From a virus (taxonomy: Duplodnaviria; Heunggongvirae; Uroviricota; Caudoviricetes), in IMG/VR virus record IMGVR_UViG_2563366911_000006: a stretch of 16,278 bases of DNA; one strand, given 5' to 3'. Below, one piece after another: positions 1 through 16,278 of this stretch. The number at the start of each line of letters is the position of its first letter. Within the stretch, counting starts at the first letter, position 1. The notes beneath the pieces are model-generated. The model saw only the letters and a list, made by a program, of their open reading frames with translations. It had not been told where the DNA came from and did no database searches. The translations under genes were made by a program, and so were the position numbers.

Positions 1-1254
1 ATGCCAAAACTCACAGATATGCAGATCCGCGCATGGATAAAAGCCGGAGAACATTTCGAAGGTCGTGCTGATGGTGGTGGGCTATATCTCCGGTATAGAG
101 AGGTGGATAGATCCCCTACCTGGCGGTTTCGATATAAACTAGCAGGAAAATCTCGTGCCATGCTTATTGGTTCATATTCTGAATTATCGTTATCAAAAGC
201 GAGGGAACGGGCAAAAGAACTTTCCGCACGAGTTGCTTTGGGATATGACGTAGCCGCAGAAAAACAGCAGCGTAAAGCCGAAGCACTGGCAAAAATAGAA
301 GCCGAAAAAAACGCGCTGCACGTTTCTGAACTTGCCGCCGAATACTTTGAACGGCAAATACTTCCCCGGTGGAAACACCCAGATATTCTCCGTAGGCGCA
401 TTGATAAAGACATAAATCCAGCCATAGGCCACATGAAGGTTGAAGATGTAAAACCACGCCATATTGATGCTATGCTTAAAAGTATTGTTGATAGAGGCGC
501 TCCAACAATTGCTACTGACGTTCTTCGCTGGACACGTCGCATATTTGACTACGGTATTAAACGCCTTGCTTTGGAAGTTAACCCCTGCTCAGCTTTCGAA
601 GTTTCAGATGCTGGTGGGAAAGAATTATCTCGTGATCGTTGGCTGAACCGGGACGAATTAATCCAATTTTTTCAGGCAATGCGTAAAGCCAAAGGATTCA
701 GCCGCCAGAACGAATTAACCTTTAAGTTGCTCCTGGCGTTGTGTGTCAGAAAAATGGAATTATGCGCCGCCAAGTGGGATGAATTCGACTTAGATGGCGC
801 GATTTGGCATCTACCAGAACAACGAACTAAAAATGGTGATGCTATCGACATACCATTGCCACCAGCGGCTATAGAATGGTTGCGAGAATTGCATACATTT
901 TCATGCAATAGCGCATGGGTATTACCTGCCAGAAAAATGCAGCACAGAATGATCCCTCACATCCAGGAAAGCACCCTTCCTGTTGCATTGGCAAAAGTCA
1001 GAGCAGAAATGCCGAACGTCCCCAACTTTACAATTCACGACTTCCGGCGAACAGCACGAACACATTTAGCAGCATTGGGAGTTGACCCGATCGTTGCTGA
1101 ACGATGCCTTAACCACCGCATAAAAGGCGTAGAGGGCATTTATAACCGCCATCAATATTTTGATGAGCGCAAAGCGGCACTAGCACAGTGGACTGATTTG
1201 CTGGTGAATTTAGAAAACATGATATGTTCTGACATCACGCAATCTAATAAATAA
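1..1254 (+). CDS. int: Tyrosine-type site-specific integrase, P4 family
   Basis: 417-aa ORF starting at base 1. N-terminal arm-binding-type region, then catalytic motifs: Arg in LCVRKMEL, HDFRRTARTH (H-x-x-R), and GIYNRHQY (His/Tyr nucleophile region). Recognised by family resemblance from memory, not by search. Confidence 0.93.
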   Translation: MPKLTDMQIRAWIKAGEHFEGRADGGGLYLRYREVDRSPTWRFRYKLAGKSRAMLIGSYSELSLSKARERAKELSARVALGYDVAAEKQQRKAEALAKIEAEKNALHVSELAAEYFERQILPRWKHPDILRRRIDKDINPAIGHMKVEDVKPRHIDAMLKSIVDRGAPTIATDVLRWTRRIFDYGIKRLALEVNPCSAFEVSDAGGKELSRDRWLNRDELIQFFQAMRKAKGFSRQNELTFKLLLALCVRKMELCAAKWDEFDLDGAIWHLPEQRTKNGDAIDIPLPPAAIEWLRELHTFSCNSAWVLPARKMQHRMIPHIQESTLPVALAKVRAEMPNVPNFTIHDFRRTARTHLAALGVDPIVAERCLNHRIKGVEGIYNRHQYFDERKAALAQWTDLLVNLENMICSDITQSNK

Positions 1255-1310
1255 TAGACATTAAGGCTAATTCATTAACGAATATATTTTTTCATAACGG
1301 TAGTGCAATC

Positions 1311-2093
1311 ATGACAAATATTAATGAAACAATATGGCAAAAAAAACAATTACCTCCATTAGAATTCTGCTCTTTAGATAGAGCAGCTCAAATTTTAGAA
1401 TGTGAAATAGATGATTTATGGCATTGGCAGGATATTAACAGAATTAATTTTGCCACAAAAATAAAAAATGCTTACTGTGAGGGGTATTTTGGTTATCGTG
1501 ATTTTACATGGCCAAAGGATGAAGACTATATTGATTTTATTTCTTTTCTCATCAAAAAAGAAATTTCCTCTCTTGGCATAATTATTCATGAATATAGTGA
1601 TGAAATAAAAGAAAATGGTGTTATTTTTGAGGCAAAGGTTTCTGGAGTTTTTGATATTCAAGAGACTATAGTAAGAAACAAAACTATCTCTATGAATACA
1701 TCCATACCGCTTTCACGTCGCACTGCGAATCCCACATTTATTTTTTCATGCCATGCAAAAACAAGCGGCAACATTAAGATTACACCTGATTCATTATTAA
1801 TAACCAGAGAGCACATTGACAACCTTTATAAATCAATAACAAATGGATTTCCAATTTACTCCATAAACAACACTATAAAAAAAGAAAATCACAAGTTACC
1901 AAGATTAACAATACATCAATTTAAAATGATATATGGATTATTAAGAATTGCCGGGTTAACAGACAATGAGATAATATCTTTGCCGCCTAACAAGTTAAAT
2001 AAAAAAATTGCACAAATAGGTGCTCAAAAAGGCATTGTAATCCCACAACCAGATAAGAACACTTGGAAAAGCTGGCGAGAGCGTTTTAGATAG
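1311..2093 (+). CDS. Hypothetical protein, strongly AT-rich orphan cargo gene
   Basis: 260-aa ORF, about 27% GC in its first 60 nt versus about 43% in the adjacent int. Asn/Ile/Lys-rich product with no motif I recognise. Weak Shine-Dalgarno. Lies in the int-alpA gap. Confidence 0.7.
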   Translation: MTNINETIWQKKQLPPLEFCSLDRAAQILECEIDDLWHWQDINRINFATKIKNAYCEGYFGYRDFTWPKDEDYIDFISFLIKKEISSLGIIIHEYSDEIKENGVIFEAKVSGVFDIQETIVRNKTISMNTSIPLSRRTANPTFIFSCHAKTSGNIKITPDSLLITREHIDNLYKSITNGFPIYSINNTIKKENHKLPRLTIHQFKMIYGLLRIAGLTDNEIISLPPNKLNKKIAQIGAQKGIVIPQPDKNTWKSWRERFR

Positions 2094-2205
2094 TGAAATA
2101 AGAAAAGTCACAGTGTTTTTTCTAAAACTCACACACACATCATTTCATTTGTTATTTAATGCCCCTATTACAAATCACAAACCAACAACAAAGGTAATGG
2201 GGCAT

Positions 2206-2424
2206 ATGAAAAACCAACCAATACTTCAAACCGCAATCCCTGCAACTGGCTATATCCGCCGCTATCGCCTGGCTGAATTGCTGGGTACCAGCTTATCAAC
2301 GCTCGATCGTTGGGTACGTAGCGGGAAGATGCCTAAGCCCATCAAACTGGGTGAGAAAAGCACTGCATTCGATGCGGTAGAGATTAATCGCTGGCTGGAA
2401 GAACGCCGAAACACATCAGCCTGA
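2206..2424 (+). CDS. alpA: AlpA-family (excisionase-like, MerR-type HTH) prophage regulatory protein
   Basis: 72-aa product with HTH core LAELLGTSLSTLDRWVRSGKMPKPIKLGEKSTAFDAVEINRWL, typical of AlpA/Xis-like proteins. Start is ambiguous (ATG 2197 or 2206; the ORF track starts at 2113 and is probably too long). Confidence 0.85.
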   Translation: MKNQPILQTAIPATGYIRRYRLAELLGTSLSTLDRWVRSGKMPKPIKLGEKSTAFDAVEINRWLEERRNTSA

Positions 2425-2503
2425 TAAAACAGCTACGGGATCAGGCGCCCCAGCTATCCACCAGCAAACAGCAATTAACCAGATTCGATAGCAGGAGTTT
2501 TTT

Positions 2504-3304
2504 ATGAAATTTCCAAAAACGCCCGTACAGGGGCAGGGCTTCGTTCGGCCTGAAAACCAGAATCTGCAAAATTTTGGTGAAATTATCCCGGTTATTTCCG
2601 GCGTTATTGGCGGGCGTGAAACCAATATTGTTAGTGCCAGAGCGTTGCATAAGGCGTTAGGTGTAGGGCGCGTTTTCCGTTCGTGGATCAAGGGGCGCAT
2701 TGAAGAATACGGCTTCACGGAAGGCGTGGATTATGAGGTTGTTGAATATTTGAGCCGACCCGATCCGGTGAGCGCAAAATCTCGCCAGCAAACAGCTCTT
2801 GAGTACATCATCACCGTGAACATGGCAAAAGAACTGGCGATGGTCGAACACACCGAACAGGGCCGTGCCGTTCGTCAGTACTTCATCAAATGCGAGGAGG
2901 AGCTACACAAGGTAGCGCCAGTGCGTTCCGCAGCGTTACGCCGGGAACTGAAAGCCCGTATCACCGTTGCCAGCTACTTTAAGCCGATGTGTGCCGCGCT
3001 GGAGGCGTACCGGGCTGAACTGGGTAAAAACACGTTCCAGCACCACTACACCACGGAAGCCAATATGCTGGCGCGTATCGTGCTGGGTGGCATGACTGCA
3101 AAACAGTGGGCACAGGCGAACGGCATTACAGGCGAACCACGCGACCACATGAGCACGTTGCAGCTTGAGCACCTTTCTTACCTTGAGCAGAGCAATATCA
3201 CGCTGATTGAGTTAGGCCTGGACTACCACCAGCGGAAAGCTGAATTAATTCGTCTTTCGCAGCGTTGGTTAGCCCGTCGCATGGAGGAAAACAGCCATGT
3301 GTAA
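2504..3304 (+). CDS. Phage antirepressor-like protein (AntA/Rha-type N-terminal domain)
   Basis: 266 aa, AGGAG Shine-Dalgarno 7 nt upstream. N-terminal segment ARALHKALGVGRVFRSWIKGRIEEYGFTEGVDYEV resembles the AntA/Rha antirepressor DNA-binding domain. C-terminal half not assigned. Confidence 0.75.
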   Translation: MKFPKTPVQGQGFVRPENQNLQNFGEIIPVISGVIGGRETNIVSARALHKALGVGRVFRSWIKGRIEEYGFTEGVDYEVVEYLSRPDPVSAKSRQQTALEYIITVNMAKELAMVEHTEQGRAVRQYFIKCEEELHKVAPVRSAALRRELKARITVASYFKPMCAALEAYRAELGKNTFQHHYTTEANMLARIVLGGMTAKQWAQANGITGEPRDHMSTLQLEHLSYLEQSNITLIELGLDYHQRKAELIRLSQRWLARRMEENSHV

Positions 3305-3976
3305 CGCTCTGACCGTTACAAAAAGAGAAAGCGCCCCGTTGCCGGAGCGCCTTTGTGAACGAATAGCCTACTGCGCCATATTGCTTACTGTCTACGAGGC
3401 AGATTATAGCGTTGTGGTCGCACAGAGTGAAGGCGCTGATCACCGTTACTACAGCACGCCAGAAATGCAGAATATTTTGCTGCAAAATGTCGTTGGTCAC
3501 GCTGTCCGGAAAGCAAAAAATTTTGCTGGTGGCGCGACTGATGCGATTTTGTCAGGTCGCAAGGTGATGATCAATCTGATGTCTAATTTCGTTCTGGATA
3601 AAACAAAGGCGACCGCAGAGGGCCACCAGTGGGAAAGCTACACACTTGAACACATCGCCAACAATGCCAGATTTGCGGCTGGTGGGCAATGTGATCAGTG
3701 TGCTGGCTTGCTGGTGGGCTATTCCTGCTCTTTAACATTGCCATGCCGCGATGTTTTCCAGGTATGCGACCCCATTTTTGTGCGCCTGTACTCTTTAAGG
3801 AATTTCTCAAGGATAAACGCACAGGGCGCGAATCTGTCTGACTCATATTCGTACGCTATCTTTCTGCGCTGTCTTTTCCGTGCCGGTGATGGTGTATTGG
3901 TCGATTCTTTGTTGGTCATTCTGTGTACCTGTAAAGCAATGCGCCGGAGTTCCTCACACCACGGCGATGATAGTTA

Positions 3977-4282
3977 TTATTCTGATTCTTTGGCCTTGCG
4001 GCGCTGGAGTTCTTCACGTGCGACGGTGACGAGCTGCCCGATCTCCTCGACAGCTTTGACTCCGATTTTTTCCACCTGCGCCAGTGCATTGAGCGAAGAA
4101 ACCAGGGGATTTTCTCCGCTTCCTTCTGCCTGGCGGCGGGCGATCTCACCACGCATGGCGGTTACTATGAATCCGGCGTTGCTTTCGCCGTCCAGTTTTA
4201 CGGATTCCATGCCTTCAAAAGCATCATGTGGGATACGAATTGAAATCTGTTTTGATTTGTCGTTGATAGTGTTTTTTGCCAT
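3977..4282 (-). CDS. Putative ribbon-helix-helix DNA-binding regulator
   Basis: 101 aa from ATG at 4282 (minus strand) with AGGAGA Shine-Dalgarno. N-terminus KQISIRIPHDAFEGMESVKL...FIVTAMRGEIARRQ fits a beta-strand/helix/helix RHH fold. Divergent from the rightward operon. The opposite-strand frame here reads as Ser/Arg-rich junk. Confidence 0.7.
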   Translation of the reverse strand: MAKNTINDKSKQISIRIPHDAFEGMESVKLDGESNAGFIVTAMRGEIARRQAEGSGENPLVSSLNALAQVEKIGVKAVEEIGQLVTVAREELQRRKAKESE

Positions 4283-4469
4283 GTGCATTCTCCTAAACAA
4301 AAGATGTGATTCAGTATACACAAAAAAGAATCACAAAAAATACTTGACCTGTGATTCAGTTAAATTTAATTTAAATCACACCTCAGTAAGAGGATATAAA
4401 CGACAACGCCCCGAACTGTTTGCGGCAGTAGCGGGGCGTCTAACCAAACCGTTAAATGAGGTAACGATT
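4283..4469. promoter_or_regulatory. Divergent control region with operator-like repeats and a leader hairpin
   Basis: Two 11-bp direct repeats TGTGATTCAGT (4305-4315, 4350-4360), each with an inverted partner GAATCACA/AATCACA (4328-4335, 4374-4380). Candidate rightward promoter TTGACC (4345-4350) with a TAATTT-type -10. Candidate leftward -10 TATACT (minus strand, 4313-4318). GC hairpin ACGCCCCG-N18-CGGGGCGT (4406-4439) in the operon leader. Confidence 0.5.
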
Positions 4470-4835
4470 ATGGCTGGGGCACAGCATACCCAAACTCACC
4501 CTAAATTTATATACACCTTCCTTGCGGTGCACCGTGATTGCATGGCTGACGGTAAAAACACTGTTCATGTAGCCGCCGATACGCTGGTTGATGCCTGCGA
4601 GATGCTCAATGACATGGGCTATATCTCGGCAACATGGAAAGGGCGCGAAGAAAACACGTTGTTTATTCAGAAATGCGAAAACAATTTTATCTGGCGTTTT
4701 ATCGCCCTGAGTACGGCACAACCGCGCGTGATTCACATCGAGGCCACCAGCGAACAGGAAGCACGCCAGCAATCTCCTGATGGCTGCGTGATGGTATTCG
4801 CTGCCCGTATTCGCCAGGAGGTGGAGCATGTGTAA
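4470..4835 (+). CDS. Hypothetical satellite-operon protein (possibly Icd-like)
   Basis: 121 aa, GAGGT Shine-Dalgarno 8 nt upstream of ATG 4470. It is the only protein-like part of the 512-aa ORF-track frame. Family assignment is from memory and uncertain. Confidence 0.65.
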   Translation: MAGAQHTQTHPKFIYTFLAVHRDCMADGKNTVHVAADTLVDACEMLNDMGYISATWKGREENTLFIQKCENNFIWRFIALSTAQPRVIHIEATSEQEARQQSPDGCVMVFAARIRQEVEHV

Positions 4836-5052
4836 TGCAACATGGCCTGATGCAGCGGTAGACGCTATCAAAACGCTGATGGATTCACTTATTGAGATTT
4901 CTGCTATCGCTGGTGTGGCGCATAAACACGCAGCCAGAGAATCAGAATGCATCTCCCATTATTTAGCATTTGTGCAGCTGAAAGCCGATCAGGCACTGGA
5001 TAAGGCCGGAAAAATTATCATGGCTGATGTACAGGAGGTGCACCATGCATAA
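4828..5052 (+). CDS. Hypothetical small protein
   Basis: 74 aa. Start overlaps upstream stop (ATGTGTAA), consistent with translational coupling. Confidence 0.5.
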   Translation: MCNATWPDAAVDAIKTLMDSLIEISAIAGVAHKHAARESECISHYLAFVQLKADQALDKAGKIIMADVQEVHHA

Positions 5053-5410
5053 CCTGTCAATTTCTGACCTTAACAGCATTCAGTTTGACGAGATATTTTC
5101 CGGGCAGCTACTGGTTAACGTGGAGAATGGACGCGTGGTAAGTAATTATCACCTGCCGGATGGTGCAATTGCCGGAAGCGTTGAAGCATTGCTGGAACTG
5201 GCGGAACGTGCGCGACTGATTAAGCCGTCAACGTGCCATCACGATGATGATCTGCATTTTACCGGGTGTATGGTGAGTCACTACGAAAACGGCGTTGAAG
5301 TATCCTGCGAACGTCTGCGTGATGATTGCTGTTTCGGCACACTGCCGGAATTTATCGAATTGCTGACCAGTTGCGGTTATCAGGTCATTCAGGGGGGTAA
5401 ACATGCGTGA
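5045..5410 (+). CDS. Hypothetical protein
   Basis: 121 aa from ATG 5045 with GGAGG Shine-Dalgarno (5033-5037). Overlaps upstream stop (ATGCATAA). Confidence 0.6.
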   Translation: MHNLSISDLNSIQFDEIFSGQLLVNVENGRVVSNYHLPDGAIAGSVEALLELAERARLIKPSTCHHDDDLHFTGCMVSHYENGVEVSCERLRDDCCFGTLPEFIELLTSCGYQVIQGGKHA

Positions 5411-5636
5411 TGATCGTTTTAATTCCCTGAAACAGGAGTTTGATGGCGCACCGGAAGATACATCGGGCGCATTGTTGAGCATTGCTGACATGATGAAAGC
5501 TGCATATTTTCTTATCAATACCAGGGGCTACAAGTCAGAGGGTGAAATGATTCTTAGTATTGCGTCGGACTATGCTGAATATGTGGCAGAGACGCGTTAC
5601 AGAAGAAAATCTCTGGAGGATGTAAGCCATGCATAA
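5403..5636 (+). CDS. Hypothetical small protein
   Basis: 77 aa. ATGCGTGA start/stop overlap with upstream gene. Confidence 0.55.
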   Translation: MRDDRFNSLKQEFDGAPEDTSGALLSIADMMKAAYFLINTRGYKSEGEMILSIASDYAEYVAETRYRRKSLEDVSHA

Positions 5637-5829
5637 TCATGAAGCGCATGTACCCGTAGTGCTTAATGTGCCAGATGATTTCACCGGACGCGTGCTGGTT
5701 TACCTTGATAAAGAAAAAGTGAAATCACAATGCCGACTGAAAAGTAATGAGATTGTGGGTTCTCCTGAATTTTTTTCTGAACTCTGTATTCGTGCAGAAA
5801 TAAAACCGGAACTGCTGACAGGAAAATAA
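5629..5829 (+). CDS. Hypothetical small protein
   Basis: 66 aa. ATGCATAA start/stop overlap with upstream gene. Confidence 0.5.
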   Translation: MHNHEAHVPVVLNVPDDFTGRVLVYLDKEKVKSQCRLKSNEIVGSPEFFSELCIRAEIKPELLTGK

Positions 5830-5833
5830 AACC

Positions 5834-6124
5834 ATGAAAAGGAAAAATTCTGGCTTTACTGCCAGCGGTCTCTCTCGGCCTGAAATCAGACACGGAGATA
5901 TTTACCGCGACACCAGACGTGGGGGACGAGTGGTTATTCGTCACGTTACGCCAGGCAATATCACCTACCGCCGTGAGGCTTACGAATATGACTGCGTAAT
6001 GCCGCGCCGTCAGTTTGAGCGTGATTTTATTCTGGTGGAAAACAAACAACAGGCAGTGGCGAGACGTGCAGCCACGAATATTAAAAAAATCCGGGCAATG
6101 TTGGTTGCGGGAGGTAAGAAGTGA
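5834..6124 (+). CDS. Hypothetical small basic protein
   Basis: 96 aa, starts 4 nt after the previous stop. Its stop overlaps the GTG start of the primase (GTGA). Confidence 0.6.
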   Translation: MKRKNSGFTASGLSRPEIRHGDIYRDTRRGGRVVIRHVTPGNITYRREAYEYDCVMPRRQFERDFILVENKQQAVARRAATNIKKIRAMLVAGGKK

Positions 6125-7926
6125 AAAACGCACCGAATTTAAAATATCAGCCGAAGGATAAATTCACCGAGGTAATCATTTTTGCCGGGACGGATGCTTA
6201 CGCCCATGCTCAACACTGGATTGAAAGCGAAGGACGAAAACACGGCGATAACGTGCCTCCTGTTTACCTGGGGCCAAAGCAACTGGCAGACCTGGCGAAT
6301 ATCCGCATTGTCGACGATGAACGCCGCTTTGCGCGTGTCTATCTCGCGGGGGAGATAGAGCCAATCCAGATCAATGCTATTGCTGAAAAGCTGGCGCTGG
6401 CTGGTGTACAGGACGCGAAATTATACAAAGGTATCACCGACCGGGAGCCGGAAAACTGGCGCGACTACCTGCAACGGATCCGCGAACAGGCAGAGAGTGG
6501 GGAAGTTTCAGCGATGAAATTAGCCACAAAAAATATTGACCTATCTAGGCCAGCACTAAATCAGATGGGAGCCAGCCAGAGAGGGGAAGTGTTACTTGAA
6601 TATTATGGAAGAGCACTGGCTATAAATGATGATTCTGATGTAGTTCACCATTACAACGGAATTGTCTGGGTGCCTGTATCTGATAAGGAACTCCAGCGGT
6701 CTATGGCGAAGATTTTTATTGATGCTGGAATCAGTTATTCGCAAAACGCCATTAAATTTGCCGTAGACACAATGAAATTGAGCCTGCCTGTTATGGGCGG
6801 GGCAGACAGGAATCTTATTGGATTCAGTAACGGGGTATTTGATACCCGGACGGGAAATTTTCGGGAGCATAACAAAAATGACTGGTTGTTAAATGCCAGT
6901 GAATTACCGTTCAGCCCACCAGCAGAGGGGGAAACGCTGGCAACACATGCGCCGAATTTCTGGAAGTGGCTGCGTCGTTCGGTGGCAGATAATGATCGTA
7001 AAGCTGATCGCGTACTGGCGGCATTATTCATGGTGCTGGCGAACCGGTACGACTGGCAGTTATTCCTTGAGGTAACAGGCCCAGGCGGAAGCGGTAAAAG
7101 TGTGATGGCTGAGATTTGTACCATGCTGGCGGGTAAGGCAAACACAGTATCGGCAAGCATGAAGGCTCTGGAAGACGCAAGGGAACGCGCGTTAGTAGTT
7201 GGCTTTTCGCTGATTATCATGCCGGATATGACTCGCTACGCTGGCGATGGTGCAGGAATTAAGGCAATTACTGGCGGCGACAAGGTGGCAATTGATCCGA
7301 AACATAAAGCCCCCTACTCCACACGTATTCCGGCAGTAGTGCTTGCGGTAAACAATAACGCCATGTCATTCAGTGACCGAAGCGGGGGGATCTCGCGTCG
7401 TAGGGTGATATTTAATTTCTCTGAGGTCGTACCGGAGAACGAACGCGATCCCATGCTGGCGGAAAAGATAGAAGGCGAACTGGCGGTAGTGATTCGCCAT
7501 TTGCTAACACGATTTACCGACCAGGACGAAGCTAAAAGACTACTTTATGAGCAGCAAAAATCAGAAGAAGCGCTGTTGATAAAGCGCGAAGGTGATTCAC
7601 TGGTGGACTTTTGCGGCTATCTGATGTCGTTGGTTAAATGTGAAGGAATGATGGTGGGCAATGCGGAAATAGTGCCATTTAGCCCGAGGCGATACCTGTA
7701 TCATGCTTATTTAGCCTATATGTCAGCGCATGGCCTGGGAAAACCAGTATCACTGACACGCTTTGGTACTGATATGCCAGGAGCTATGGCGGAATACGGA
7801 AAGGAGTATAAGCGGGCTAAATGCACTAAAGGCCCGGATAAAGGGCGAGTGATAACAAATGTTCTGTTAGATGATGATGCTGATGGCTGGTTGCCAGCAG
7901 CTACAGGGATTAACGACAGAACATAA
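6121..7926 (+). CDS. Replication primase/helicase, P4 alpha-type C-terminal family (P-loop NTPase)
   Basis: 601 aa, GTG start with GGAGG Shine-Dalgarno. Walker A motif TGPGGSGKS near aa 316 (about nt 7066-7092). Overall resemblance to the P4-family primase C-terminal/helicase region. Followed directly by iterons. Confidence 0.88.
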   Translation: MKNAPNLKYQPKDKFTEVIIFAGTDAYAHAQHWIESEGRKHGDNVPPVYLGPKQLADLANIRIVDDERRFARVYLAGEIEPIQINAIAEKLALAGVQDAKLYKGITDREPENWRDYLQRIREQAESGEVSAMKLATKNIDLSRPALNQMGASQRGEVLLEYYGRALAINDDSDVVHHYNGIVWVPVSDKELQRSMAKIFIDAGISYSQNAIKFAVDTMKLSLPVMGGADRNLIGFSNGVFDTRTGNFREHNKNDWLLNASELPFSPPAEGETLATHAPNFWKWLRRSVADNDRKADRVLAALFMVLANRYDWQLFLEVTGPGGSGKSVMAEICTMLAGKANTVSASMKALEDARERALVVGFSLIIMPDMTRYAGDGAGIKAITGGDKVAIDPKHKAPYSTRIPAVVLAVNNNAMSFSDRSGGISRRRVIFNFSEVVPENERDPMLAEKIEGELAVVIRHLLTRFTDQDEAKRLLYEQQKSEEALLIKREGDSLVDFCGYLMSLVKCEGMMVGNAEIVPFSPRRYLYHAYLAYMSAHGLGKPVSLTRFGTDMPGAMAEYGKEYKRAKCTKGPDKGRVITNVLLDDDADGWLPAATGINDRT

Positions 7927-7953
7927 TACGAAATTTATAAGCTGAAACGTAAA

Positions 7954-8289
7954 GGTAGACGGTTGGTAGACAGATTCACTTAACCCTCTACCAACCATCT
8001 ACCAATTAATATTTTGAATTATAAAGATATTTTCAATGTAGTAGAGAGGTAGACAGTTATTTCTATATTCCTAAACCACGGGGGGTATATAAAAAACAGA
8101 TAGTTAAGGGGGCATTTTTTAAATTTCTCTTTTAACTGTCTACACTGTCTACCATTTAGTAAAAATCATTAATTATCAATGTATTAATGCGGTAGACCGT
8201 TGGTAGACAGTTTGCAGATTGTTTTTTTGTTATGTGTTAATAACATTAAATAAATCAATCAATTATATCGGTAGACAGTTGGTAGACAG
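7954..8289. repeat. Iteron array, putative satellite replication origin
   Basis: Repeated GGTAGAC(N)GTTGGTAGACAG units in both orientations (7954-7973, inverted 7987-8002, 8041-8056, inverted 8136-8153, 8191-8210, 8270-8289) separated by AT-rich DNA. No ORF of 60 aa or more. Immediately 3' of the primase/helicase gene. Confidence 0.7.
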
Positions 8290-8301
8290 TTGTAACGATG
8301 G

Positions 8302-8310: not shown

Positions 8311-8356
8311 CTGATGAATCCCCTAATGATTTTGGTAAAAATCATTAAGTTAAGGT

Positions 8357-8425
8357 GGATACACATCTTGTCATATGATCAAATGGTTTCGCGAAAAATC
8401 AATAATCAGACAACAAGATGTGCGA
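8357..8425 (-). ncRNA. IS10 RNA-OUT antisense RNA (position inferred)
   Basis: Placed by offset from the IS10 outside end using textbook IS10 organisation. Imperfect inverted repeat CATCTTGTC (8364-8372) / GACAACAAGATG (8409-8420) fits the RNA-OUT stem overlapping the transposase start. Confidence 0.45.
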
Positions 8426-9626: not shown

Positions 9627-9639
9627 GGGGATCTCTCAG

Positions 9640-9648
9640 GGCAAAGCA
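9640..9648. repeat. IS10 target-site duplication, right copy (GGCAAAGCA)
   Basis: Identical to 8302-8310. Its last base is the A of the ATG of the next gene. Confidence 0.9.
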
Positions 9649-10178
9649 TGACTAAGCTGACCATTAACAGAAAACCAAAAGGTATTTACGGCACGCCGCA
9701 GAAAACGACGCAGGCGGCACAGGAGCAGGATAAAACCACATCGGCGCATAAAGTGATGCCCGGTAACCAGAAAGCGCAGCAGAAGCCTACAGGGGCGACA
9801 CCGTGGCGGCATATGACCAAACGCCAGCGCAAAAACCGCAGGCGCGTTAACCGCCTCACTGAGTTGTGGCCTGACTTATTCAGCCGGGAAGCACTGAAGC
9901 CGCTTAAGGTGGGGATATTCGACGACCTGATGCAGGATCTCGCCGCCAGGGGGCTGGCATTCGGGCCAGGGGCATTGCGTGCGACGCTGGCATCTTATGC
10001 GCAGTGTCCGCGCTATTACCGCGCCTTAATGGCTGGTGGGGTACGCTACGACCTGAAAGGCCAGCCGTGCGGCGAGGTGACACCACAGGAACAACAGGAC
10101 GCAGAAACGCGGCTGGTGGCGCTGAATGAGAAGCGCAAACGCCAGTGCCGGGCAGCAAAGGAGACAATAGGCGCATGA
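9648..10178 (+). CDS. ProQ/FinO-domain protein (RNA chaperone-like)
   Basis: 176 aa, GC-rich. Segment PLKVGIFDDLMQDL...LRATLASYAQCPRYYRALMAGGVRYDLKGQPCGEVTPQEQ closely parallels the conserved ProQ/FinO core (PLKIGIF..DL...R.DL.G.PCGE). IS10 lies immediately upstream. Confidence 0.72.
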   Translation: MTKLTINRKPKGIYGTPQKTTQAAQEQDKTTSAHKVMPGNQKAQQKPTGATPWRHMTKRQRKNRRRVNRLTELWPDLFSREALKPLKVGIFDDLMQDLAARGLAFGPGALRATLASYAQCPRYYRALMAGGVRYDLKGQPCGEVTPQEQQDAETRLVALNEKRKRQCRAAKETIGA

Positions 10179-10462
10179 TTCACGACAGCAAAGCGGAAGC
10201 ACTGGAAGCGCGTGGTCTGTACCGGAGAGCGGCGGCGCGGTGGGCTGAGGTCATCATGCTGGCGAATGATGACAAGGCACGGGAACAGGCGGCAAAACGT
10301 CGCGCGGAATGTATCCACAAGGCAGCACGCCCACCAGCAAGGCAGGATAATTTCGGGGAGATGCGCGAAACCATCAGCCGGGCACATGCCGGGATGGGAT
10401 TACATCAGCCCAATGGTGAGGCATTCAGGAAATACCAAAAAAAGAACAATTGTAGTCAGTAA
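10175..10462 (+). CDS. PerC-family-like small transcriptional regulator
   Basis: 95 aa from ATG 10175, overlapping the upstream stop (ATGA). N-terminal AEALEARGLYRRAAARWAEV recalls the PerC family. Assignment from memory, moderate certainty. Confidence 0.6.
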   Translation: MIHDSKAEALEARGLYRRAAARWAEVIMLANDDKAREQAAKRRAECIHKAARPPARQDNFGEMRETISRAHAGMGLHQPNGEAFRKYQKKNNCSQ

Positions 10463-10596
10463 CAGAGGATGGGATTCTCTTGGTTTTTTGTTGATGCTTT
10501 CTGAGGAAATCTACTACGTTGCTGAGCAGATGAATATTCAATTGCATCTGGGTTCCTGATAAGATTAATCTGAATATTTTCATTTGGAATAGGGAT

Positions 10597-11739
10597 ATGA
10601 ATAAAACTTTAATTGCAACATTAGTCGGTATAGTAATGTTAACCGGATGTGGGCCAGAAGAGTTAACTCCAGAACAGAAACAGGAAGTAGCTGCTCTTAA
10701 AGCTGAACTGTCGCAAACGGAAGGTGAAATATCAGCAGCTAAGGAAGTTGACCAGCAGTTTTCTGGTGGGTTGATAAAAAATCTGACAACAGCAAGACTG
10801 GAAATATTAGGAACTAATAAAGCGCTTTTGGAACAGCGTATTAATGCTATTGAATCAGGTGCCAAAATTGATGTTGTTGTATCTGGAGTAAAACCTGATC
10901 CTGAGCTTGCGGCTTCAATTAAAACTGAAATTGACAGCTTAGATGCAAAAATCAACGAAGCCAAAGCTGATGCTCGTCAGTATAGTGGTGGTCTGATAAA
11001 GGTACTAAAATTATCTACTGTTGCCACTGAAGAGCAGACCATGGCAATGTTGCAGCAAAAGTACCTCACAGCCAAGTATGGCCTCGCTGAAGTTAAGCTG
11101 GCATCAGTACAAGCTAATGACGCAAAAAACAGTACTGAAACGGAAGTAACAGCCAAAAATTCCCAAGAGCAACTTCCTTTACTCCCGCCAGCGGATGGTC
11201 CGTTTGGCTTAGAAGCCGGTCTTACACAGAAAAACATCGAAGATATGATCGGTGCTAAGCTCAAGCCACTACCAGACAGTGTGAATCTGTATACTTCTGA
11301 TAAATTACCGAAGCAAAACGCAGATTTTGAAATGTATGGTTTGCTGATCTCCCCGAAAGCTGGTTTATGTCAAATACGGGCTTTAGGAAAAAATATTGAT
11401 ACTGATAGCTATGGATTGGCTCTTAAATCCAAGTTTGAAGAATTGAGTAATTCTTTAAGTTCTCTGTATGGAAAGGCTGATACTACAGACTTTTTGCTGG
11501 CTGGTTCAATTTGGAAAGATCCTCAGGACTGGATGAGGGGGCTAAACAAAAAAGAACGCTTCTTATCTGCCACATGGAAGGGAACAAAAGAAATACCATT
11601 AAAAAACAATATTGATACTATATCTATTGAGGCCAGAGCGAACAATTCCACTCAGGGATATGTCTATCTGCAGTACTCATTTACAAATGACGAAATTTGT
11701 CAGGCAGAAATTGAAGGGGCGAAAAAAAGTTCCCTTTAA
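10597..11739 (+). CDS. Lipoprotein with internal repeats, function unknown
   Basis: 380 aa. Signal peptide with lipobox LTGC (Cys18). Two copies of a Q(F/Y)SGGLIK motif about 70 aa apart in a coiled-coil-like N-terminal half. AT-rich. Followed by a strong terminator. Confidence 0.85.
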   Translation: MNKTLIATLVGIVMLTGCGPEELTPEQKQEVAALKAELSQTEGEISAAKEVDQQFSGGLIKNLTTARLEILGTNKALLEQRINAIESGAKIDVVVSGVKPDPELAASIKTEIDSLDAKINEAKADARQYSGGLIKVLKLSTVATEEQTMAMLQQKYLTAKYGLAEVKLASVQANDAKNSTETEVTAKNSQEQLPLLPPADGPFGLEAGLTQKNIEDMIGAKLKPLPDSVNLYTSDKLPKQNADFEMYGLLISPKAGLCQIRALGKNIDTDSYGLALKSKFEELSNSLSSLYGKADTTDFLLAGSIWKDPQDWMRGLNKKERFLSATWKGTKEIPLKNNIDTISIEARANNSTQGYVYLQYSFTNDEICQAEIEGAKKSSL

Positions 11740-11751
11740 ACAATCCGTGCA

Positions 11752-11778
11752 AAGCCCCTTAGTAAGGGGCTTTTATAT
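11752..11778 (+). terminator. Rho-independent terminator
   Basis: Perfect 9-bp stem AAGCCCCTT / AAGGGGCTT with 3-nt loop, followed by TTATATATT. Confidence 0.7.
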
Positions 11779-11803
11779 ATTAATGTTCAACGTGGGGGAT
11801 TAG

Positions 11804-12127
11804 ATGAAAGATAATCTAGCAAAACTAATTGAAAATACTTTAAAAGATATTCTATTAGCTAATGCTGCTCTAACATTCATTTTTGCAATACCAATGGCTA
11901 TTATCAGTAGGCATGGGATGGGCATCACAATCTGGTTTATAACTGTGCTCATTGCACCTGCTCTGTGTGCAGTAGGTGCATGGCTTGTATCTCGAACATC
12001 CGGCCATGCTGAGGAGTTCTTTCATCGTCGGTGGGCTAAGCGAATTTATGTTTTTTATACTCTTGCGGCTGCCGAGTTTTTGCTTGTGTACTCAATCGCG
12101 CAAATAATGAAAAATCTGATGAAATAA
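11804..12127 (+). CDS. Small integral membrane protein (about 3 TM helices)
   Basis: 107 aa, GGGGGA Shine-Dalgarno. Three hydrophobic stretches of about 20 aa (LANAALTFIFAIPMAIIS, ITIWFITVLIAPALCAVGAWLV, IYVFYTLAAAEFLLVYSIAQIM). AT-rich. Confidence 0.7.
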   Translation: MKDNLAKLIENTLKDILLANAALTFIFAIPMAIISRHGMGITIWFITVLIAPALCAVGAWLVSRTSGHAEEFFHRRWAKRIYVFYTLAAAEFLLVYSIAQIMKNLMK

Positions 12128-12395
12128 TTAACAAGTTATTATCATGGAGCTTGTGGCTGTTAACCTGCAGTGAGGCGACAATCGTGTATTTATAAAAACT
12201 TCCCCTTTTCACTCCCCGCTGCTTCTTCTGCTATTGCCTTTATGTTTGCATCTGCCATACCTTTGCAGAAAAATCAGAGCATTCAGTGCCGAAGGTTGGT
12301 TTATTGATGCTTTTCGTTTCATTTATTGCAATTGTCTCTGGTATCATTTCAATTTGTGCAATAATTGCAATTATTGTCATTCAGAAGGGATCATC

Positions 12396-12563
12396 ATGAA
12401 AAATCACGGAGTAAAGCCAGTTTTACTTTCCCGGAGGCAGATCGAAGCCCTGCAACGCATCCAGGACGAAGAGCGTCAGAAATCTGTGCTTGGTGTGGCA
12501 CCGTCGATTCATGTTATCGCTCGGCAACTGATGGATAAGGCACTTAAAGAGGTGAGACTGTGA
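12396..12563 (+). CDS. Small hypothetical protein (possible DNA-binding regulator or antitoxin-like)
   Basis: 55 aa from ATG 12396 with AAGGGA Shine-Dalgarno 5 nt upstream. Upstream region carries ATTGCAAT-type palindromic repeats. The ORF-track start (12234) is probably too far upstream. Confidence 0.55.
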   Translation: MKNHGVKPVLLSRRQIEALQRIQDEERQKSVLGVAPSIHVIARQLMDKALKEVRL

Positions 12564-12832
12564 AATTAAATATCAGAGTGGATAAACGCCAGCTATGGCA
12601 GAAAAAAGAGAACAGCGAGGCATTCAGGGCGTTGCTGGTGGAAAATCTTCAGCATCGGTTCAGTGGAGAGTTGCCTGATGCTCTAGGGAAGAAACTGGAA
12701 TCCCTGACGGTGGAAATTGGCGATTATGGCTTTGTTGATGTTGAAAGCACGACTGCCAACACAGAAATCGTAAAACAGGTCGTCAATGATGTAATGAAAA
12801 CCACGCTTAGCCAGCCATCCTGGCGCAACTGA
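12560..12832 (+). CDS. Small acidic hypothetical protein
   Basis: 90 aa. GTG start overlapping the upstream stop (GTGA), suggesting a coupled two-gene unit. Followed by a hairpin terminator. Confidence 0.55.
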   Translation: MKLNIRVDKRQLWQKKENSEAFRALLVENLQHRFSGELPDALGKKLESLTVEIGDYGFVDVESTTANTEIVKQVVNDVMKTTLSQPSWRN

Positions 12833-12838
12833 ATCAGT

Positions 12839-12862
12839 AAGGGGCGGTTATTGCCCCTTTCC
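12839..12862 (+). terminator. Putative rho-independent terminator
   Basis: Stem AAGGGGC / GCCCCTT with 7-nt loop followed by TTCCTCC. U-tract is weak. Confidence 0.5.
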
Positions 12863-12931
12863 TCCATACCCACAACGCATTCCCTTTCCGCATGAAATTA
12901 TTTTTTATCGTATATGCATGAGGTGAGCTAC

Positions 12932-13459
12932 ATGTTGATGAGTAAAGCCGAATACGCCAAATACAAAGGCGTAAGCCGCCAGACAGTTTACGACTGGCTC
13001 GAGAAAGGCGAAGTGGTCATGTCCGGTAAAAAAATTGATGTGGAGGCGACAGAGCAGCGGAACAGCCCACCGGCACAAGGGAAAGACACCGTTTCTGAAA
13101 TGTGGCCAGAAAGAACGCTGGAAATGACGTGGGGCGAGTTCTGGAAAGCAGTTAAGGCCAGAGACGGTAAAATTCCTTCGCCAGTAACGGACGATGACAT
13201 ACAGCAGCGTGTGCTGTATGCAGCCGGGGAATTAGGCTGGGAAGTGCACTTTCTTGATGATGGTGCTATCTGCCTTGAGGATGATGAAGGGCAGCATTAC
13301 TTTGAAAAATACAATTTGCGAGGTAATGCCAGGCTGGCAATTCGTATGCTGCGTTGCGAACTCTGCTATGTTGCAGGTGATTATCCCGATGAACTGGAAT
13401 CATGGAGTGAAGCCGGGCTAAACGCCCTGGCTGAATGGGAAAAATCAGACCATCAATGA
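12932..13459 (+). CDS. N-terminal HTH protein (possible small-terminase-like or packaging-redirection-like DNA-binding protein)
   Basis: 175 aa from ATG 12932 with GAGGTGA Shine-Dalgarno. N-terminus MSKAEYAKYKGVSRQTVYDWLEKGEV is an HTH of the type found at the N-terminus of small terminase / Nu1-like proteins. Acidic C-terminal domain. A repeat array lies immediately downstream. Confidence 0.65.
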   Translation: MLMSKAEYAKYKGVSRQTVYDWLEKGEVVMSGKKIDVEATEQRNSPPAQGKDTVSEMWPERTLEMTWGEFWKAVKARDGKIPSPVTDDDIQQRVLYAAGELGWEVHFLDDGAICLEDDEGQHYFEKYNLRGNARLAIRMLRCELCYVAGDYPDELESWSEAGLNALAEWEKSDHQ

Positions 13460-13464
13460 CATCA

Positions 13465-13733
13465 AAAAGTGTCAAGTTAAGCAGCTTGCCAGGTTGACAC
13501 TTTACACTCTGAACGCGAAAAAGTGTCAACCTCGCTAGAAGCCGCGCCATTACTGGCCTTGTACCATATTCACCACGTCAAAAAACCGAAAAAATCGCGA
13601 AAAGTGTCAAGTTGCCATGCTTAGAAATGCCAGGGGTGGTTAAGTTTTGTTAAGGTTTTTCGCGAAAAAGTGTCAAGTGTGTCAACCTGCGATGTTAAGG
13701 TTTGTTAAGGTCTTAAGCTGGAAAGTGTCAACC
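13465..13733. repeat. Array of AAAGTGTCAA-type repeats, putative protein-binding site cluster
   Basis: Seven copies of (CGCG)AAAAGTGTCAA(G/C): direct at 13465-13476, 13515-13532, 13597-13611, 13661-13677, 13676-13688 (variant), 13720-13733, and inverted at 13492-13503. Interleaved GTTAAGG(T) repeats (about 13640-13660, 13693-13712, 13741-13756). No ORF of 60 aa or more on the plus strand. Confidence 0.75.
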
Positions 13734-13763
13734 AGCCACCTAAGATTTCCTAAGGTGTAAATC

Positions 13764-13937
13764 ATGACCATCACCGAAGCCGATTTGCTGGAGATGATCC
13801 GCAGCATTGCCGGAATCAAACAACCTGCAAGAAAAATTAACAGGTGTTCAGCGCCTGTTTCCGTTGTGCTGCAACAGGAACGCCACCAGCAGGATGATGT
13901 GAGGCCGTATCAGTGGAAGAAACCGGACAGGCCGCGA
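13764..13937 (+). CDS. Small ORF (57 aa), possibly a gene remnant
   Basis: ATG 13764 with AAGGTG Shine-Dalgarno 7 nt upstream. First about 20 aa are protein-like (MTITEADLLEMIRSIAGIKQ), the remainder low-complexity. Below the ORF-track size cutoff. Confidence 0.3.
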
Positions 13938-13982
13938 CGGTGAGCGAGGCGTTACAGTAAGCCGATATTCAAGCCAAACATT

Positions 13983-14005
13983 AAGCCTACGGGCAAGGCT
14001 TTTTT
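13983..14005 (+). terminator. Putative rho-independent terminator
   Basis: Stem AAGCCT / AGGCTT with 7-nt loop followed by TTTTG. Confidence 0.5.
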
Positions 14006-14289
14006 GTAGCTGGTGGGCATGATGCCGATATAATAGCCCCTCCTACCAATTATCTGTGATTCCTATCTAACCTTCATCACGGACAACTAGAAAATCATTG
14101 TGGATAAATAAGGATCATAACGAATAAAGCATTTCATAGCAGAGCAACATACTGACTATTCAATACCCTGTTCAAACGTACAGGTATCAGTGTTATCAAC
14201 GTTTTAATAACCTTTCATGTTCTTTCCTACCACTTAAACTAGAGTAAAATGTGAAAAATTTATACCCATAAGTTTCATATGGAGGAACT

Positions 14290-16278
14290 GTGTTCCTAAT
14301 ATCTGACCTTAGCGACTTGCGTGCACTTTCGGAATCCGCAGAGCTAGAGTTCAAGCTAGCTCAAGGGAAAGACGGACAAGGTAAATTACCTGATGATTTC
14401 TGGCCAACCTATAGTGCTATGGCAAACTGCCGTGGTGGGTATGTGGTTTTAGGTATTAGAGAGAAAAAAGGGGAATTTTCCGTTGCGGGTATCTCAGATA
14501 TAAATACCGTTAAAAAGCAGCTTTTCGACCTCGTGAGCAACAAGAAAAAAGTTAACGTTAATCTTCTTACCAATAACTCTGTCCAAACAGTATCCTTACA
14601 GGGAAAGGATATTCTTGTCATTGAAATACCAATCGCACGACGAGAACAGAAACCTGTTTATTTGAATAATCAACCCATGTCAGAAACATGGTTTCGTATG
14701 CACGACGGTGATCATCGTTGTTCAGAAGAACAAGTTCGTCGCATGATGGCCGAACAGGTTGAAGAAAGCCGCGACAACCGTATCGTACAAAACTTCGACA
14801 TGAACGATATTAACCTAGAAAGCTTGTTGGCTTACAGAAATCTACTATCTGCTTCAAACCCGACACATCCAGCTCTCGAACTAGATAACTTTGCTTTCCT
14901 ACGAAGTATTGGGGGATATAGAAAAGACCGGCAAACAGGTTTGGAAGGCATGACCTTAGCTGGCATTCTCATGTTTGGAACATGGGAAGCGATACAAGAT
15001 GTAGCCCCAAATTATTTTGTGGATTACCAAGAACGCCCTGAAGCAAGAACTGAAAGAAGATGGGTAGATAGACTATGTCCCGATGGGACTTGGTCAGGTA
15101 ACGTGTTTGACTTTTACAGACGAACCTATCGAAAACTAATTGCTGACTTAAAAGTCCCTTTTGAGCTTAAAGAAGGTATCCGACAGGACGATACTCAGAT
15201 ACACACAGCATTGCGTGAAGCGCTGGTAAATACCTTAGTTCATGCCGATTATACTGGACGAATCTCCATCATGGTTGTGAAACGACCAGATCTATTTGGC
15301 TTCCGTAATCCAGGTTTGATGCGCGTGCCACCAGAACAAGCAATCAAAGGATATGAAAGCGATTGTCGAAACCGACTGATGCATCAAATGTTTTTAATTA
15401 TTGGTGCTGGTGAACGATCAGGCTCAGGGATCCCTAAAATATTTAGTGGCTGGAAATGGGCTAACTGGCGTATGCCAAGGCTATATGAAAAAACAGAACC
15501 AGAACAAACACTTTTGGAGCTATCTATTGGCAACCTCGTATCAGAAGAAATTGCCAATCTTCTCCATACAAAATTTGGCGACAAAGTAGACCATCTCAGT
15601 GAGCTTGAGCGCAGTATTGTTATAACTGCAGCCGTAGAAAAGTGGATTGACCATGAACGGGCTTGTCAACTAACTAGCCTTCACTCTCGTGAGGTAACTT
15701 TAGCCTTACCCCGCCTTGTAAGCGGCGGATTCTTAGTCCCTCATGGTGAGAAGAGGAATAAATCATATACATTACCGGGGCAGGATCTTCCATCTCCAGA
15801 GGAAGTTTTTGGTGTAAATCCGTTATCAACAGACAACTCATTCGCAAACGAAGCTCAAATCATCACGGATAGCGATAATTTGATCACGGATAACGAAGAA
15901 TTGATCACGGATAACGAAAAAGAACGAGATGCTTTAGGTCGTTTTATAACCGAGAAACTACCTTTTCCTTATGTGGATAACCTTGAGTGCCTTTCACCAA
16001 CCTTAAGGCAACGGTTAGAAGACATATCTGCATTAGCCAGAGAAAAGAAACGACTTTCCAACGAAACCATGGACGAAATCATACTTAAGCTTTGCTCAGG
16101 CCATTATATGCCGCTTAGTGTTATTGCAAAGTTAATGGCCCGAACACCACAGAACCTACGAGAAAAACAGCTCGTTCCATTAGTAAGATCCGGAAAAATA
16201 AGACTGGCATTTCCTCATGCGAGAAGACACAAACGACAGGGATATATTTCTTGTGAACAAGTACAAGTTAACAACTAA
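14290..16278 (+). CDS. Schlafen/AlbA_2-domain protein with GHKL-like ATPase-type region (COG2865-like) and extended C-terminus
   Basis: 662 aa, GTG start with GGAGG upstream. N-terminal SESAELEFK signature; LAGILMFG segment; LREALVNTLVHADY...FRNPG...ERSGSGIPKIF matching the HATPase_c_4-like core of COG2865 proteins; C-terminal HTH-like segments. Family call from memory of motifs. Ends exactly at the window end. Confidence 0.8.
   Translation: MFLISDLSDLRALSESAELEFKLAQGKDGQGKLPDDFWPTYSAMANCRGGYVVLGIREKKGEFSVAGISDINTVKKQLFDLVSNKKKVNVNLLTNNSVQTVSLQGKDILVIEIPIARREQKPVYLNNQPMSETWFRMHDGDHRCSEEQVRRMMAEQVEESRDNRIVQNFDMNDINLESLLAYRNLLSASNPTHPALELDNFAFLRSIGGYRKDRQTGLEGMTLAGILMFGTWEAIQDVAPNYFVDYQERPEARTERRWVDRLCPDGTWSGNVFDFYRRTYRKLIADLKVPFELKEGIRQDDTQIHTALREALVNTLVHADYTGRISIMVVKRPDLFGFRNPGLMRVPPEQAIKGYESDCRNRLMHQMFLIIGAGERSGSGIPKIFSGWKWANWRMPRLYEKTEPEQTLLELSIGNLVSEEIANLLHTKFGDKVDHLSELERSIVITAAVEKWIDHERACQLTSLHSREVTLALPRLVSGGFLVPHGEKRNKSYTLPGQDLPSPEEVFGVNPLSTDNSFANEAQIITDSDNLITDNEELITDNEKERDALGRFITEKLPFPYVDNLECLSPTLRQRLEDISALAREKKRLSNETMDEIILKLCSGHYMPLSVIAKLMARTPQNLREKQLVPLVRSGKIRLAFPHARRHKRQGYISCEQVQVNN

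Follow-up and report, generated by a model that had tools for sequence, protein, structure and literature searches.

The window analyzed here, the whole 16,278-nt stretch of tailed-phage-class DNA in IMG/VR record IMGVR_UViG_2563366911_000006, opens with an inward-pointing integrase gene (int) and continues with an alpA regulator, a Bro-network gene, a run of small genes, a primase-helicase gene (pri-rep), an iteron-bearing origin, a complete IS10 copy, proQ and perC genes, a protein-repeat array pair and a right-end Schlafen-type gene. It comprises the gene-carrying body of a Gram-negative phage-inducible chromosomal island (PICI), a phage satellite, from the start codon of int to the stop codon of the last gene. 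Very probably, this is nearly the whole of a PICI inserted in the end of yicC in Escherichia coli, with IS10 inside it. The integrase, AlpA, primase/helicase, origin and regulators listed in an initial annotation made from sequence alone are all confirmed by domain matches and iterons, and the genes fall into the four zones (Integration, Bro, Replication and Late) of the PICI plan. E. coli chromosomes match the window; among catalogued elements, it is closest to the reference PICI EcCIRM13514, located at yicC-dinD.

Relative contigs L006 and L013, together with L030, serve as stand-ins for the flanks of the window and are 100.000% identical to it over 1-8310 and 9639-16278. L030 contains a perfect 21-bp direct repeat, AGATTCAGAATATTGAGTAAC, whose two copies lie 15,271 bp apart. 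The left copy, beginning 209 bp before the int ATG, corresponds to the last 20 nt of yicC and overlaps its stop codon; the right copy begins 123 bp past the Schlafen stop codon, and an attR core at this same spacing is present in eight of the eight relatives checked. The attachment (att) core is the 3' end of yicC, with no involvement of a tRNA, and the island DNA itself rebuilds the end of the gene. The repeat flanks the int ATG and the Schlafen stop; therefore, the element includes both the repeat array and the Schlafen gene, and the two att sites are just outside the window. The complete unit measures 15,271 bp (15.3 kb) in IS-free copies and ~16.6 kb in the IS10-bearing copy of the window. 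In the source of the window, the yicC 3' end with AGATTCAGAAYATTGARTAAC is predicted 209 bp upstream of the int ATG, and attP is predicted to read …TACTCAATATAT-core-GATTTATTGAC….

The chromosomal context agrees with this assignment. yicC and dinD are adjacent genes in K-12, where the empty site joins both flanks exactly at the 21-bp core, and strain ABU 83972 carries the same island between the two genes. Across eight relatives, the DNA to the left of the right-hand core is constant, and that to its right varies between dinD-positive and dinD-negative chromosomes. In L009, L010 and L012, at about 12112-12400, dinD is missing beyond attR, which leaves yicG as the direct neighbor of the island; the core and the DNA left of it stay the same. 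The exact integrase protein occurs in 1951 blocks of the assembly collection and is encoded just downstream of yicC in every place type shown (25 contigs read), and the gene for the exact Schlafen protein is the final one of the island, followed by dinD or yicG, at each of the eight places shown. Paired GTGTACAY repeats are present on both att arms in three yicC PICI variants, including EcCIRM13514 and the island of ExPEC XM, and are probably arm-type integrase binding sites. Paired repeats of the GTGTACAY/GGTGAACCC type lie at 9900-10000 of L006 and 12015-12050 of L013, just outside the window.

With int at the left edge, the initial annotation had expected attR to the right, and attR is found there, 123 bp past the end of the window rather than well beyond it. 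The right boundary, which had been left undefined along with the position of the array and Schlafen gene relative to it, is now set through L030. The expectation of a tRNA-derived repeat did not hold. ARAGORN detects no tRNA gene in the window, nor is any present within 10 kb on either side in the identical relatives, and a tRNA-derived att site was rejected on these grounds; a search for one would have failed for a yicC island. The suggested check for a direct repeat finds none within the window, the 21-bp yicC repeat flanking the island in L030 instead. A second candidate, an internal att remnant that would make the Schlafen region a separate older island, was also rejected, since no att-like sequence exists inside the window within 3 mismatches.

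The yicC-dinD junction is a listed attachment site of Gram-negative PICIs (Fillol-Salom et al. 2018, Table S1). That supplement gives EcCIRM13514 and CfCIP10159 as yicC PICIs and marks the ABU 83972 copy, of 13.7 kb, as 'PICI?'. In a later survey, yicC is again named as an integration site of reference PICIs.

A scan of all 91 six-frame open reading frames (ORFs) of at least 45 aa yielded matches limited to 16 Pfam families, with no capsid, portal, tail, large terminase, holin, endolysin, Psu, Ogr/Delta, relaxase or conjugation family among them. Of 58 PHROG families matched, the 25 shown include none for structure or lysis, and neither do the per-protein scans, the sole exception being a weak small-terminase helix-turn-helix (HTH) match of a 181-aa protein (E = 2e-6). 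Both sets of scans bear out the earlier statement that capsid, tail, large-terminase and lysis genes are missing, and phage structural genes contiguous with the region are likewise absent, the identical relatives being flanked by yicC and dinD or yicG.

A defective or cryptic prophage, or an integrative and conjugative or mobilizable element, would explain the integrase, antirepressor-like and Icd-like genes, and automatic annotation often reports an 'incomplete prophage' for such regions, as it does for EcCIMP1 (PMC11773190). This origin is nevertheless extremely improbable given the lack of structural, lysis, large-terminase, relaxase and conjugation families in all six frames, the 15.3-kb size and the homology to listed PICIs. 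An inward int followed by alpA, with transcription almost all one way, is characteristic of PICIs rather than of prophages (PMC10111431).

A P4-like satellite, which would use a P2-like helper, Sid/Psu capsid remodeling and P2-type cos sites, shares with the window an int gene, an AlpA-family gene, an Icd-like ORF and a primase whose C-terminal half resembles the TIGR01613 'P4 family' domain. The TIGR01613 match of 95.8 bits is, however, under the model cut-off of 108.7, and no six-frame ORF matches the Psu or Ogr/Delta Pfam families. The PHROG families shown include no Sid-like match (no dedicated Sid or epsilon models were run), no P2/P4 cos occurs within 3 mismatches, and no C4/isrK-type immunity RNA is detected at E <= 1. 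The gene order follows that of PICIs and not psu-delta-sid-alpA-epsilon-alpha (PMC10085698), leaving a P4-like identity very improbable and close to refuted. The call of a helper-dependent satellite rather than a prophage, P4-like or PICI-like, in the initial annotation accordingly stands as to a satellite-type island, and the choice it offered resolves to PICI.

Several of the features named by Fillol-Salom et al. 2018 for PICIs are found in the element. It is a small island (15,271 bp, against about 8-16 kb) with a specific att site; int points inward from the left end and is followed by alpA, and nearly all genes read rightward, the only leftward ones being two small genes (3719-4321), as in EcCICFT073. 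pri-rep precedes an origin with two iteron sets around an AT-rich region, and the six-frame Pfam and PHROG scans show no genes for tails, lysis or a large terminase. For the packaging or interference module named in the same criteria (Rpp plus cos, TerS/Ppi or capsid-morphogenesis genes), the window offers a candidate analogue, a winged-helix protein with its repeat array. A capsid-forming PICI (cfPICI) is recognized by its own capsid, portal, head-tail connector and terL genes, none of which was found in six frames. Under the SatelliteFinder definition (de Sousa et al. 2023), a PICI carries at least four of five core components (int, regulator, pri-rep, capsid morphogenesis and terS); three of the five (int, alpA and pri-rep) are recognizable here, which corresponds to the unreported 'Type C' (PMC10085698).

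Several points weigh against the PICI assignment or limit it. Judging from PMC10085698, SatelliteFinder (the program itself was not run) would have left the element unreported. The boundaries are placed on relatives identical to the window and not on the flanks of the window itself, and would carry over to it by that identity. IS10 may have inactivated the downstream half of this copy. Finally, for yicC-type PICIs, induction, helper identity and transfer are assumed by analogy. Despite these points, a Gram-negative PICI at yicC remains the strongly favored identity, and the island is a mosaic member of an already catalogued PICI sub-family, an ordinary element that was correctly spotted. Annotation pipelines tend to call such DNA an 'incomplete prophage', whereas here it becomes a delimited 15.3-kb satellite with base-level ends. 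The element fills in a poorly studied PICI sub-family and leaves the current picture of satellites unchanged.

The left part of the island is headed by the tyrosine integrase (1-1254, plus strand; Pfam Arm-DNA-bind_3, Phage_int_M and Phage_integrase), which targets the yicC 3' end, points into the element and carries an HxxR motif at residue 346. A 260-aa accessory gene with 31% GC (1311-2093, plus strand) occupies the slot between int and alpA. Its product has no Pfam, PHROG, NCBIfam or PADLOC match and belongs to an orphan family of 6 protein clusters in a 5.8-billion-sequence protein search; the same slot holds a different gene in other yicC PICIs. The AlpA-family regulator follows (2206-2424, plus strand; Pfam Phage_AlpA and HTH_17) and is presumed to be the master activator of the island cycle, a role known from experiments on EcCICFT073 and EcCIMP1 (PMC6092414, PMC11773190). 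The 'Bro zone' is represented by an AntA/AntB (Bro-network) protein (2504-3304, plus strand), which matches Pfam AntA at 1.5e-22 and the PHROG anti-repressor Ant at 6.8e-41.

Two small minus-strand genes come next, at 3719-3919 (66 aa; phrog_21027) and 3977-4321 (114 aa, YlcI/YnfO-like; phrog_6522). Homologues in EcCICFT073 and EcCIRM13514 share their strand and place, and the pair is conserved in Gram-negative PICIs. A terminator scan places minus-strand hairpins resembling terminators at 3627-3608 and 3353-3328. An ORF of uncertain start with an Icd-like C-terminus (4167-4835, plus strand) matches phrog_6196 and phrog_1743 over residues 171-222; RefSeq names its counterparts in relatives 'Icd-like', and position 4632 here is not a start codon. 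The 512-aa open frame at 3297-4835 is not credible as one gene and is probably not a gene. What the stretch encodes is the pair of leftward genes, with their terminators, and a short Icd-like gene; in relatives, gene callers give conflicting results for it. Five small overlapping plus-strand genes (4828-6124; PHROGs 5146, 340, 24341, 2512 and 285), one of them a DUF4222 gene by Pfam, lead up to the primase and show 52-54% identity to their EcCICFT073 counterparts.

The Pri-Rep primase-helicase (6121-7926, plus strand; Pfam D5_N, DUF5906 and Pox_D5) carries a Walker A motif, GPGGSGKS, at residue 320. Immediately downstream, the replication origin (7954-8291) is composed of two sets of GGTAGACNGTT iterons around an AT-rich spacer, with 11 sites against 0.5 expected by chance. 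PMC6092414 describes this layout for the origins of Gram-negative PICIs. A complete IS10 (8311-9639, plus strand), which the initial annotation did not mention, has inserted past the origin and ahead of proQ; its junctions were aligned to an IS-free relative. It is identified by its 1329-bp length, a DDE transposase of the IS4 family (NF033591, 1.5e-120), the RNA-OUT antisense RNA (8356-8425, minus strand, 98.8 bits; the only RNA in the Rfam scan of the window) and a 9-bp target duplication, GGCAAAGCA, at 8302-8310 and 9640-9648, which is a near-consensus target site. Between the last iteron and the insertion there are 19 bp, and the right-hand copy of the target duplication extends over the start codon of proQ. 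Two assemblies are otherwise identical to the window and differ from it by this insertion alone, the junction of which has no exact match in the genome or metagenome contig collections.

The origin is probably intact despite IS10, which interrupts the rightward operon and may exert polarity on the downstream half. The insertion lends some weight to a different account, in which the island is a decayed PICI remnant that persists vertically at yicC, this copy being further crippled by an IS10 directly upstream of proQ within a single rightward operon. Such decay would agree with the lack of a recognizable capsid-morphogenesis, small-terminase or Rpp gene, with the constant location of the identical Int at one locus, and with the ABU 83972 copy, in which the ProQ gene carries a frameshift and the slot gene is annotated with a length of 627 bp rather than 783 bp. 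It is unlikely, however: int, alpA, pri with its Walker A motif and the iteron origin are intact, as are the att cores and arm repeats in the identical relatives, and the right-hand module is conserved across genera. The center of the island is also 98-99.7% identical to tRNA-Thr PICIs and its right-hand module is about 90% identical to a tRNA-Pro PICI, near-identities that argue for recent exchange between active elements.

Such exchange with PICIs using other integrases, not base composition, is the strongest evidence of mosaicism. The ABU 83972 island is 98.6-99.2% identical to the window over 1-3574 and 12316-16278 and only 84% identical in the replication genes. Islands at tRNA-Thr(CGU)/proA, in turn, match window positions 2810-8310 and 9639-13758 at 98.0-99.7% and differ in integrase, slot gene, AlpA and right end. 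The comparison indicates that the int-orf260-alpA module and the right end are yicC-specific, with the center common to tRNA-Thr PICIs. The segment 14009-16278, which starts just past a terminator, is the only part in common with island variant L010 (CP173213; the near-identical island of ExPEC XM was used in its place). There are three cargo slots, one separating int from alpA, one following perC and one at the right end; PMC10085698 gives the first and last as positions of PICI accessory genes. The post-perC slot of the L010/ExPEC XM variant holds three large uncharacterized genes (843, 686 and 918 aa; L017 14754-22101, L010 754-8101), which may form a multi-gene defense system. The island offers a worked example of how a PICI is built, with integration modules, a replication and 'late' core, and cargo slots swapped at near-identity across sites.

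The base composition is uneven around a window mean of 45.1% GC. By a simple binomial estimate, the blocks at 1255-2205 (31.1%), 10477-12315 (39.8%), 14009-16278 (41.6%) and 9648-10462 (57.7%) deviate from the mean by about 9, 4.5, 3 and 7 SD, respectively, and the origin forms a further AT-rich block (7927-8310, 32.0%). The initial annotation had taken the AT-rich and GC-rich blocks as modular cargo; the compositions are as it described and the mosaicism holds, but the GC-rich block is a conserved part of the PICI backbone rather than cargo that was acquired. This block is composed of a ProQ/FinO-family gene (9648-10178, plus strand; Pfam ProQ 2.4e-23) and a PerC-family regulator gene (plus strand; longest ORF from GTG 10145 to 10462, 95 aa in the annotation of relatives; Pfam PerC 1.8e-31). 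It shows 92-95% DNA identity in ABU 83972-type relatives and in L005, L011 and L012; both families are also present in EcCIRM13514, and PerC is present in EcCICFT073 and EcCIMP1.

After perC, a cargo cassette (10477-12315, plus strand) encodes a 380-aa lipoprotein (10597-11739) and a 107-aa membrane protein (11804-12127). ABU 83972 has 18 bp in place of this 1.84-kb cassette, and the protein pair recurs in Enterobacter islands (L021 5940-7469) at 88% and 68% identity. Neither protein has a family match and the structure model is uninformative; the lipoprotein family is widespread in Enterobacterales and wholly unannotated. The right-hand module starts with two small conserved plus-strand genes (12396-12832; 55 aa and 90 aa) whose products are 98-100% identical in relatives, the 55-aa protein being 62% identical to an EcCIMP1 ORF. 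Toward its other end, a 59-aa gene is followed by an intrinsic-terminator-like hairpin at 13983-14001 (together 13764-14007, plus strand). Residues 3-22 of the 59-aa protein align with the N-terminus of CFT073 orf93 (55%, E = 1.4e-4, BLASTP), and its C-terminal ...WKKP(D/E)R.RR segment matches orf93 by eye.

Between these genes lies a pair, not noted as such in the initial annotation, that constitutes one of two leads from the island, the other being the Schlafen-type candidate defense gene at the right end. The gene at 12914-13459 (plus strand) encodes a PICI-only winged-helix (wHTH) DNA-binding protein of 181 aa (175 aa from ATG 12932), the AlphaFold2 model of which is confident (pLDDT 87). 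It is followed by a repeat array (13467-13731) that contains six exact copies of AAGTGTCAA, five direct and one inverted, against 0.14 expected, along with GTTAAG-N4-GTTAAGG units. The protein-array pairing is solid: across six loci representing four lineages (the yicC and tRNA-Pro islands of E. coli and the islands of Klebsiella and Enterobacter), 34 of the 37 AGTGT[CA]AA sites lie within 730 nt downstream of a 181-aa homologue. In the E. coli, Klebsiella and Enterobacter islands (L018-L023, L024), the gene always has such an array after it, in which AGTGT[C/A]AA sites are interleaved with (G/C)TAAG-N4-(G/C)TAAGG units.

The protein family is spread across Enterobacterales and has no member in 50,697 phage records; likewise, window positions 12800-14300 show no similarity to any phage DNA. 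The wHTH gene and array are present in 170 of 5426 complete E. coli genomes and are terminal in the tRNA-Pro PICI. They form a portable terminal module in PICIs with at least three integrases in E. coli and in related Klebsiella and Enterobacter islands. Klebsiella homologues (L018-L020, 1-20516) lie at the right end of int/primase islands that abut or interrupt a myovirus-like prophage late region. In L019, a truncated major capsid gene follows the island, and some Klebsiella islands carry extra Dit-like and baseplate genes. The arrangement looks like a helper-embedded PICI.

The preferred reading of the pair, held at low confidence, is that the wHTH protein and the AGTGT[C/A]AA array act as a hitherto undescribed, satellite-only packaging-specificity module, a functional analogue of Rpp/cosB or TerS/pac. 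If true, PICIs that have no capsid genes could use such a module to label their DNA for the terminase of non-lambda helper phages. Several observations count against this assignment and leave it weak. The fold match covers only a 46-63-residue wHTH, which is common to excisionases, Cox and MerR-like regulators, and the fold would suit a role in recombination directionality or in transcription equally well. Alignment of the 181-aa protein to RppA by hhalign gives 26% probability, for the HTH only, and phmmer finds no match to it in the PDB, which holds RppC. No cleavage site was found, and lambda-type cosN and P2/P4 cos are absent from the window, as are homologues of Rpp, TerS and capsid genes. 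Membership in the Rpp family was rejected on the lack of homology beyond the wHTH fold and of a nearby cosN.

The right-end cargo (14009-16278, plus strand) is composed of an AT-rich upstream region and a gene (14290-16278) encoding a 662-aa Schlafen/AlbA_2 protein with a GHKL-like ATPase domain. The protein matches Pfam SLFN_AlbA_2 at 1.7e-12, and its HATPase_c_4 match of 24.8 bits is just under the cut-off of 26. Residues 15-22 (ESAELEFK) correspond to the Ex4(E/D)xK catalytic motif of prokaryotic Schlafen tRNases. PADLOC, run on the cargo genes, returns only weak domain-level Schlafen matches to pAgo-associated models. A 21-nt tandem repeat of 2.9 copies inside the gene (15862-15921) encodes ITD(S/N)(D/E)(N/E)L in the linker before the C-terminal region. 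Fusion of Slfn to a histidine-kinase-type ATPase is the commonest prokaryotic Schlafen (pSlfn) architecture, and defense was found only for DUF262 and Ig-like fusions and not for the tested HisKinase-type fusions (PMC13056530). By domain content, the gene may be regarded as a candidate defense gene.

By homology to EcCICFT073 and EcCIMP1, a life cycle in the style of these two islands can be assumed for the yicC island. A helper phage would induce alpA, as in the experiments on both, where excision and replication require Int and Pri-Rep; AlpA would then activate the rightward operon, Int would excise the island, and Pri-Rep would replicate it from the iteron origin. The island DNA would be packaged into helper virions, and the likeliest candidate for a packaging or late-control determinant is the wHTH protein (12914-13459) with the AGTGT[C/A]AA array.

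Comparison with known systems places the window, among catalogued elements, closest to EcCIRM13514, itself a bioinformatic prediction. The two share the target gene, the same kind of yicC 3' att core, paired GTGTACAY arm repeats and the order int, slot gene, alpA, Bro-network gene, leftward YlcI-like gene, Icd-like gene, primase, ProQ and PerC, with identities of 85% for Int, 72% for AlpA, 74% for Pri, 52% for ProQ and 49% for PerC. EcCIRM13514 differs in carrying an SSB gene and other cargo, including a 143-aa lipoprotein, and it has neither the 181-aa wHTH gene and repeat array nor the 59-aa gene, the Schlafen cassette or IS10. The 143-aa ORF was considered as an Rpp homologue and rejected, being a lipoprotein with no Rpp similarity.

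EcCICFT073 is an experimentally characterized E. coli PICI with helpers lambda and phi80 and Rpp/cos packaging. A gene order of int, slot gene, alpA, Bro-network, YlcI-like, Icd-like, small ORFs, DUF4222, primase, origin, (ProQ) PerC and late zone is common to the window, EcCIRM13514 and EcCICFT073. The latter matches the window in Pri-Rep (43%), DUF4222 (52%), PerC (49%), the leftward small genes and the Icd-like region; its origin likewise follows pri, and its last gene, orf93, is the counterpart of the 59-aa gene. In contrast, its integrase is different (26% identity), its att site is ycfD-phoQ, and it has capsid and decoration genes that the window lacks. Near its right end, EcCICFT073 carries rppA flanked by two lambda-type cosN sites, where the window has the 181-aa gene and array.

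PICIs at tRNA-Thr(CGU)/proA (e.g., CP053079), the EcCIMP1 site, match the window from the Bro-network and replication genes through proQ/perC and the lipoprotein cargo to the wHTH gene with its array, whereas they have a 404-aa integrase, another slot gene, a 65-aa AlpA, other right-end genes where the window has the 59-aa gene and the Schlafen cassette, and a tRNA-derived att. EcCIMP1 itself has only AntA (59%), PerC (48%) and the 55-aa ORF in common with the window, and it was rejected as the closest relative on these three shared proteins and a different primase.

At the level of single modules, Rpp/cosB and SaPI-type TerS/pac systems resemble the 181-aa gene and array in pairing a small satellite protein that has an N-terminal wHTH of the small-terminase/MerR/excisionase type with adjacent short repeats in the 'late' zone; Rpp has a coiled-coil C-terminus, whereas the C-terminal domain of the 181-aa protein is alpha/beta. 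The pSlfn nucleases (PMC13056530) combine a Slfn/AlbA_2 domain bearing Ex4(E/D)xK with a GHKL/HisKinase-like ATPase, the same combination that the window protein presents in a mobile-element cargo slot.

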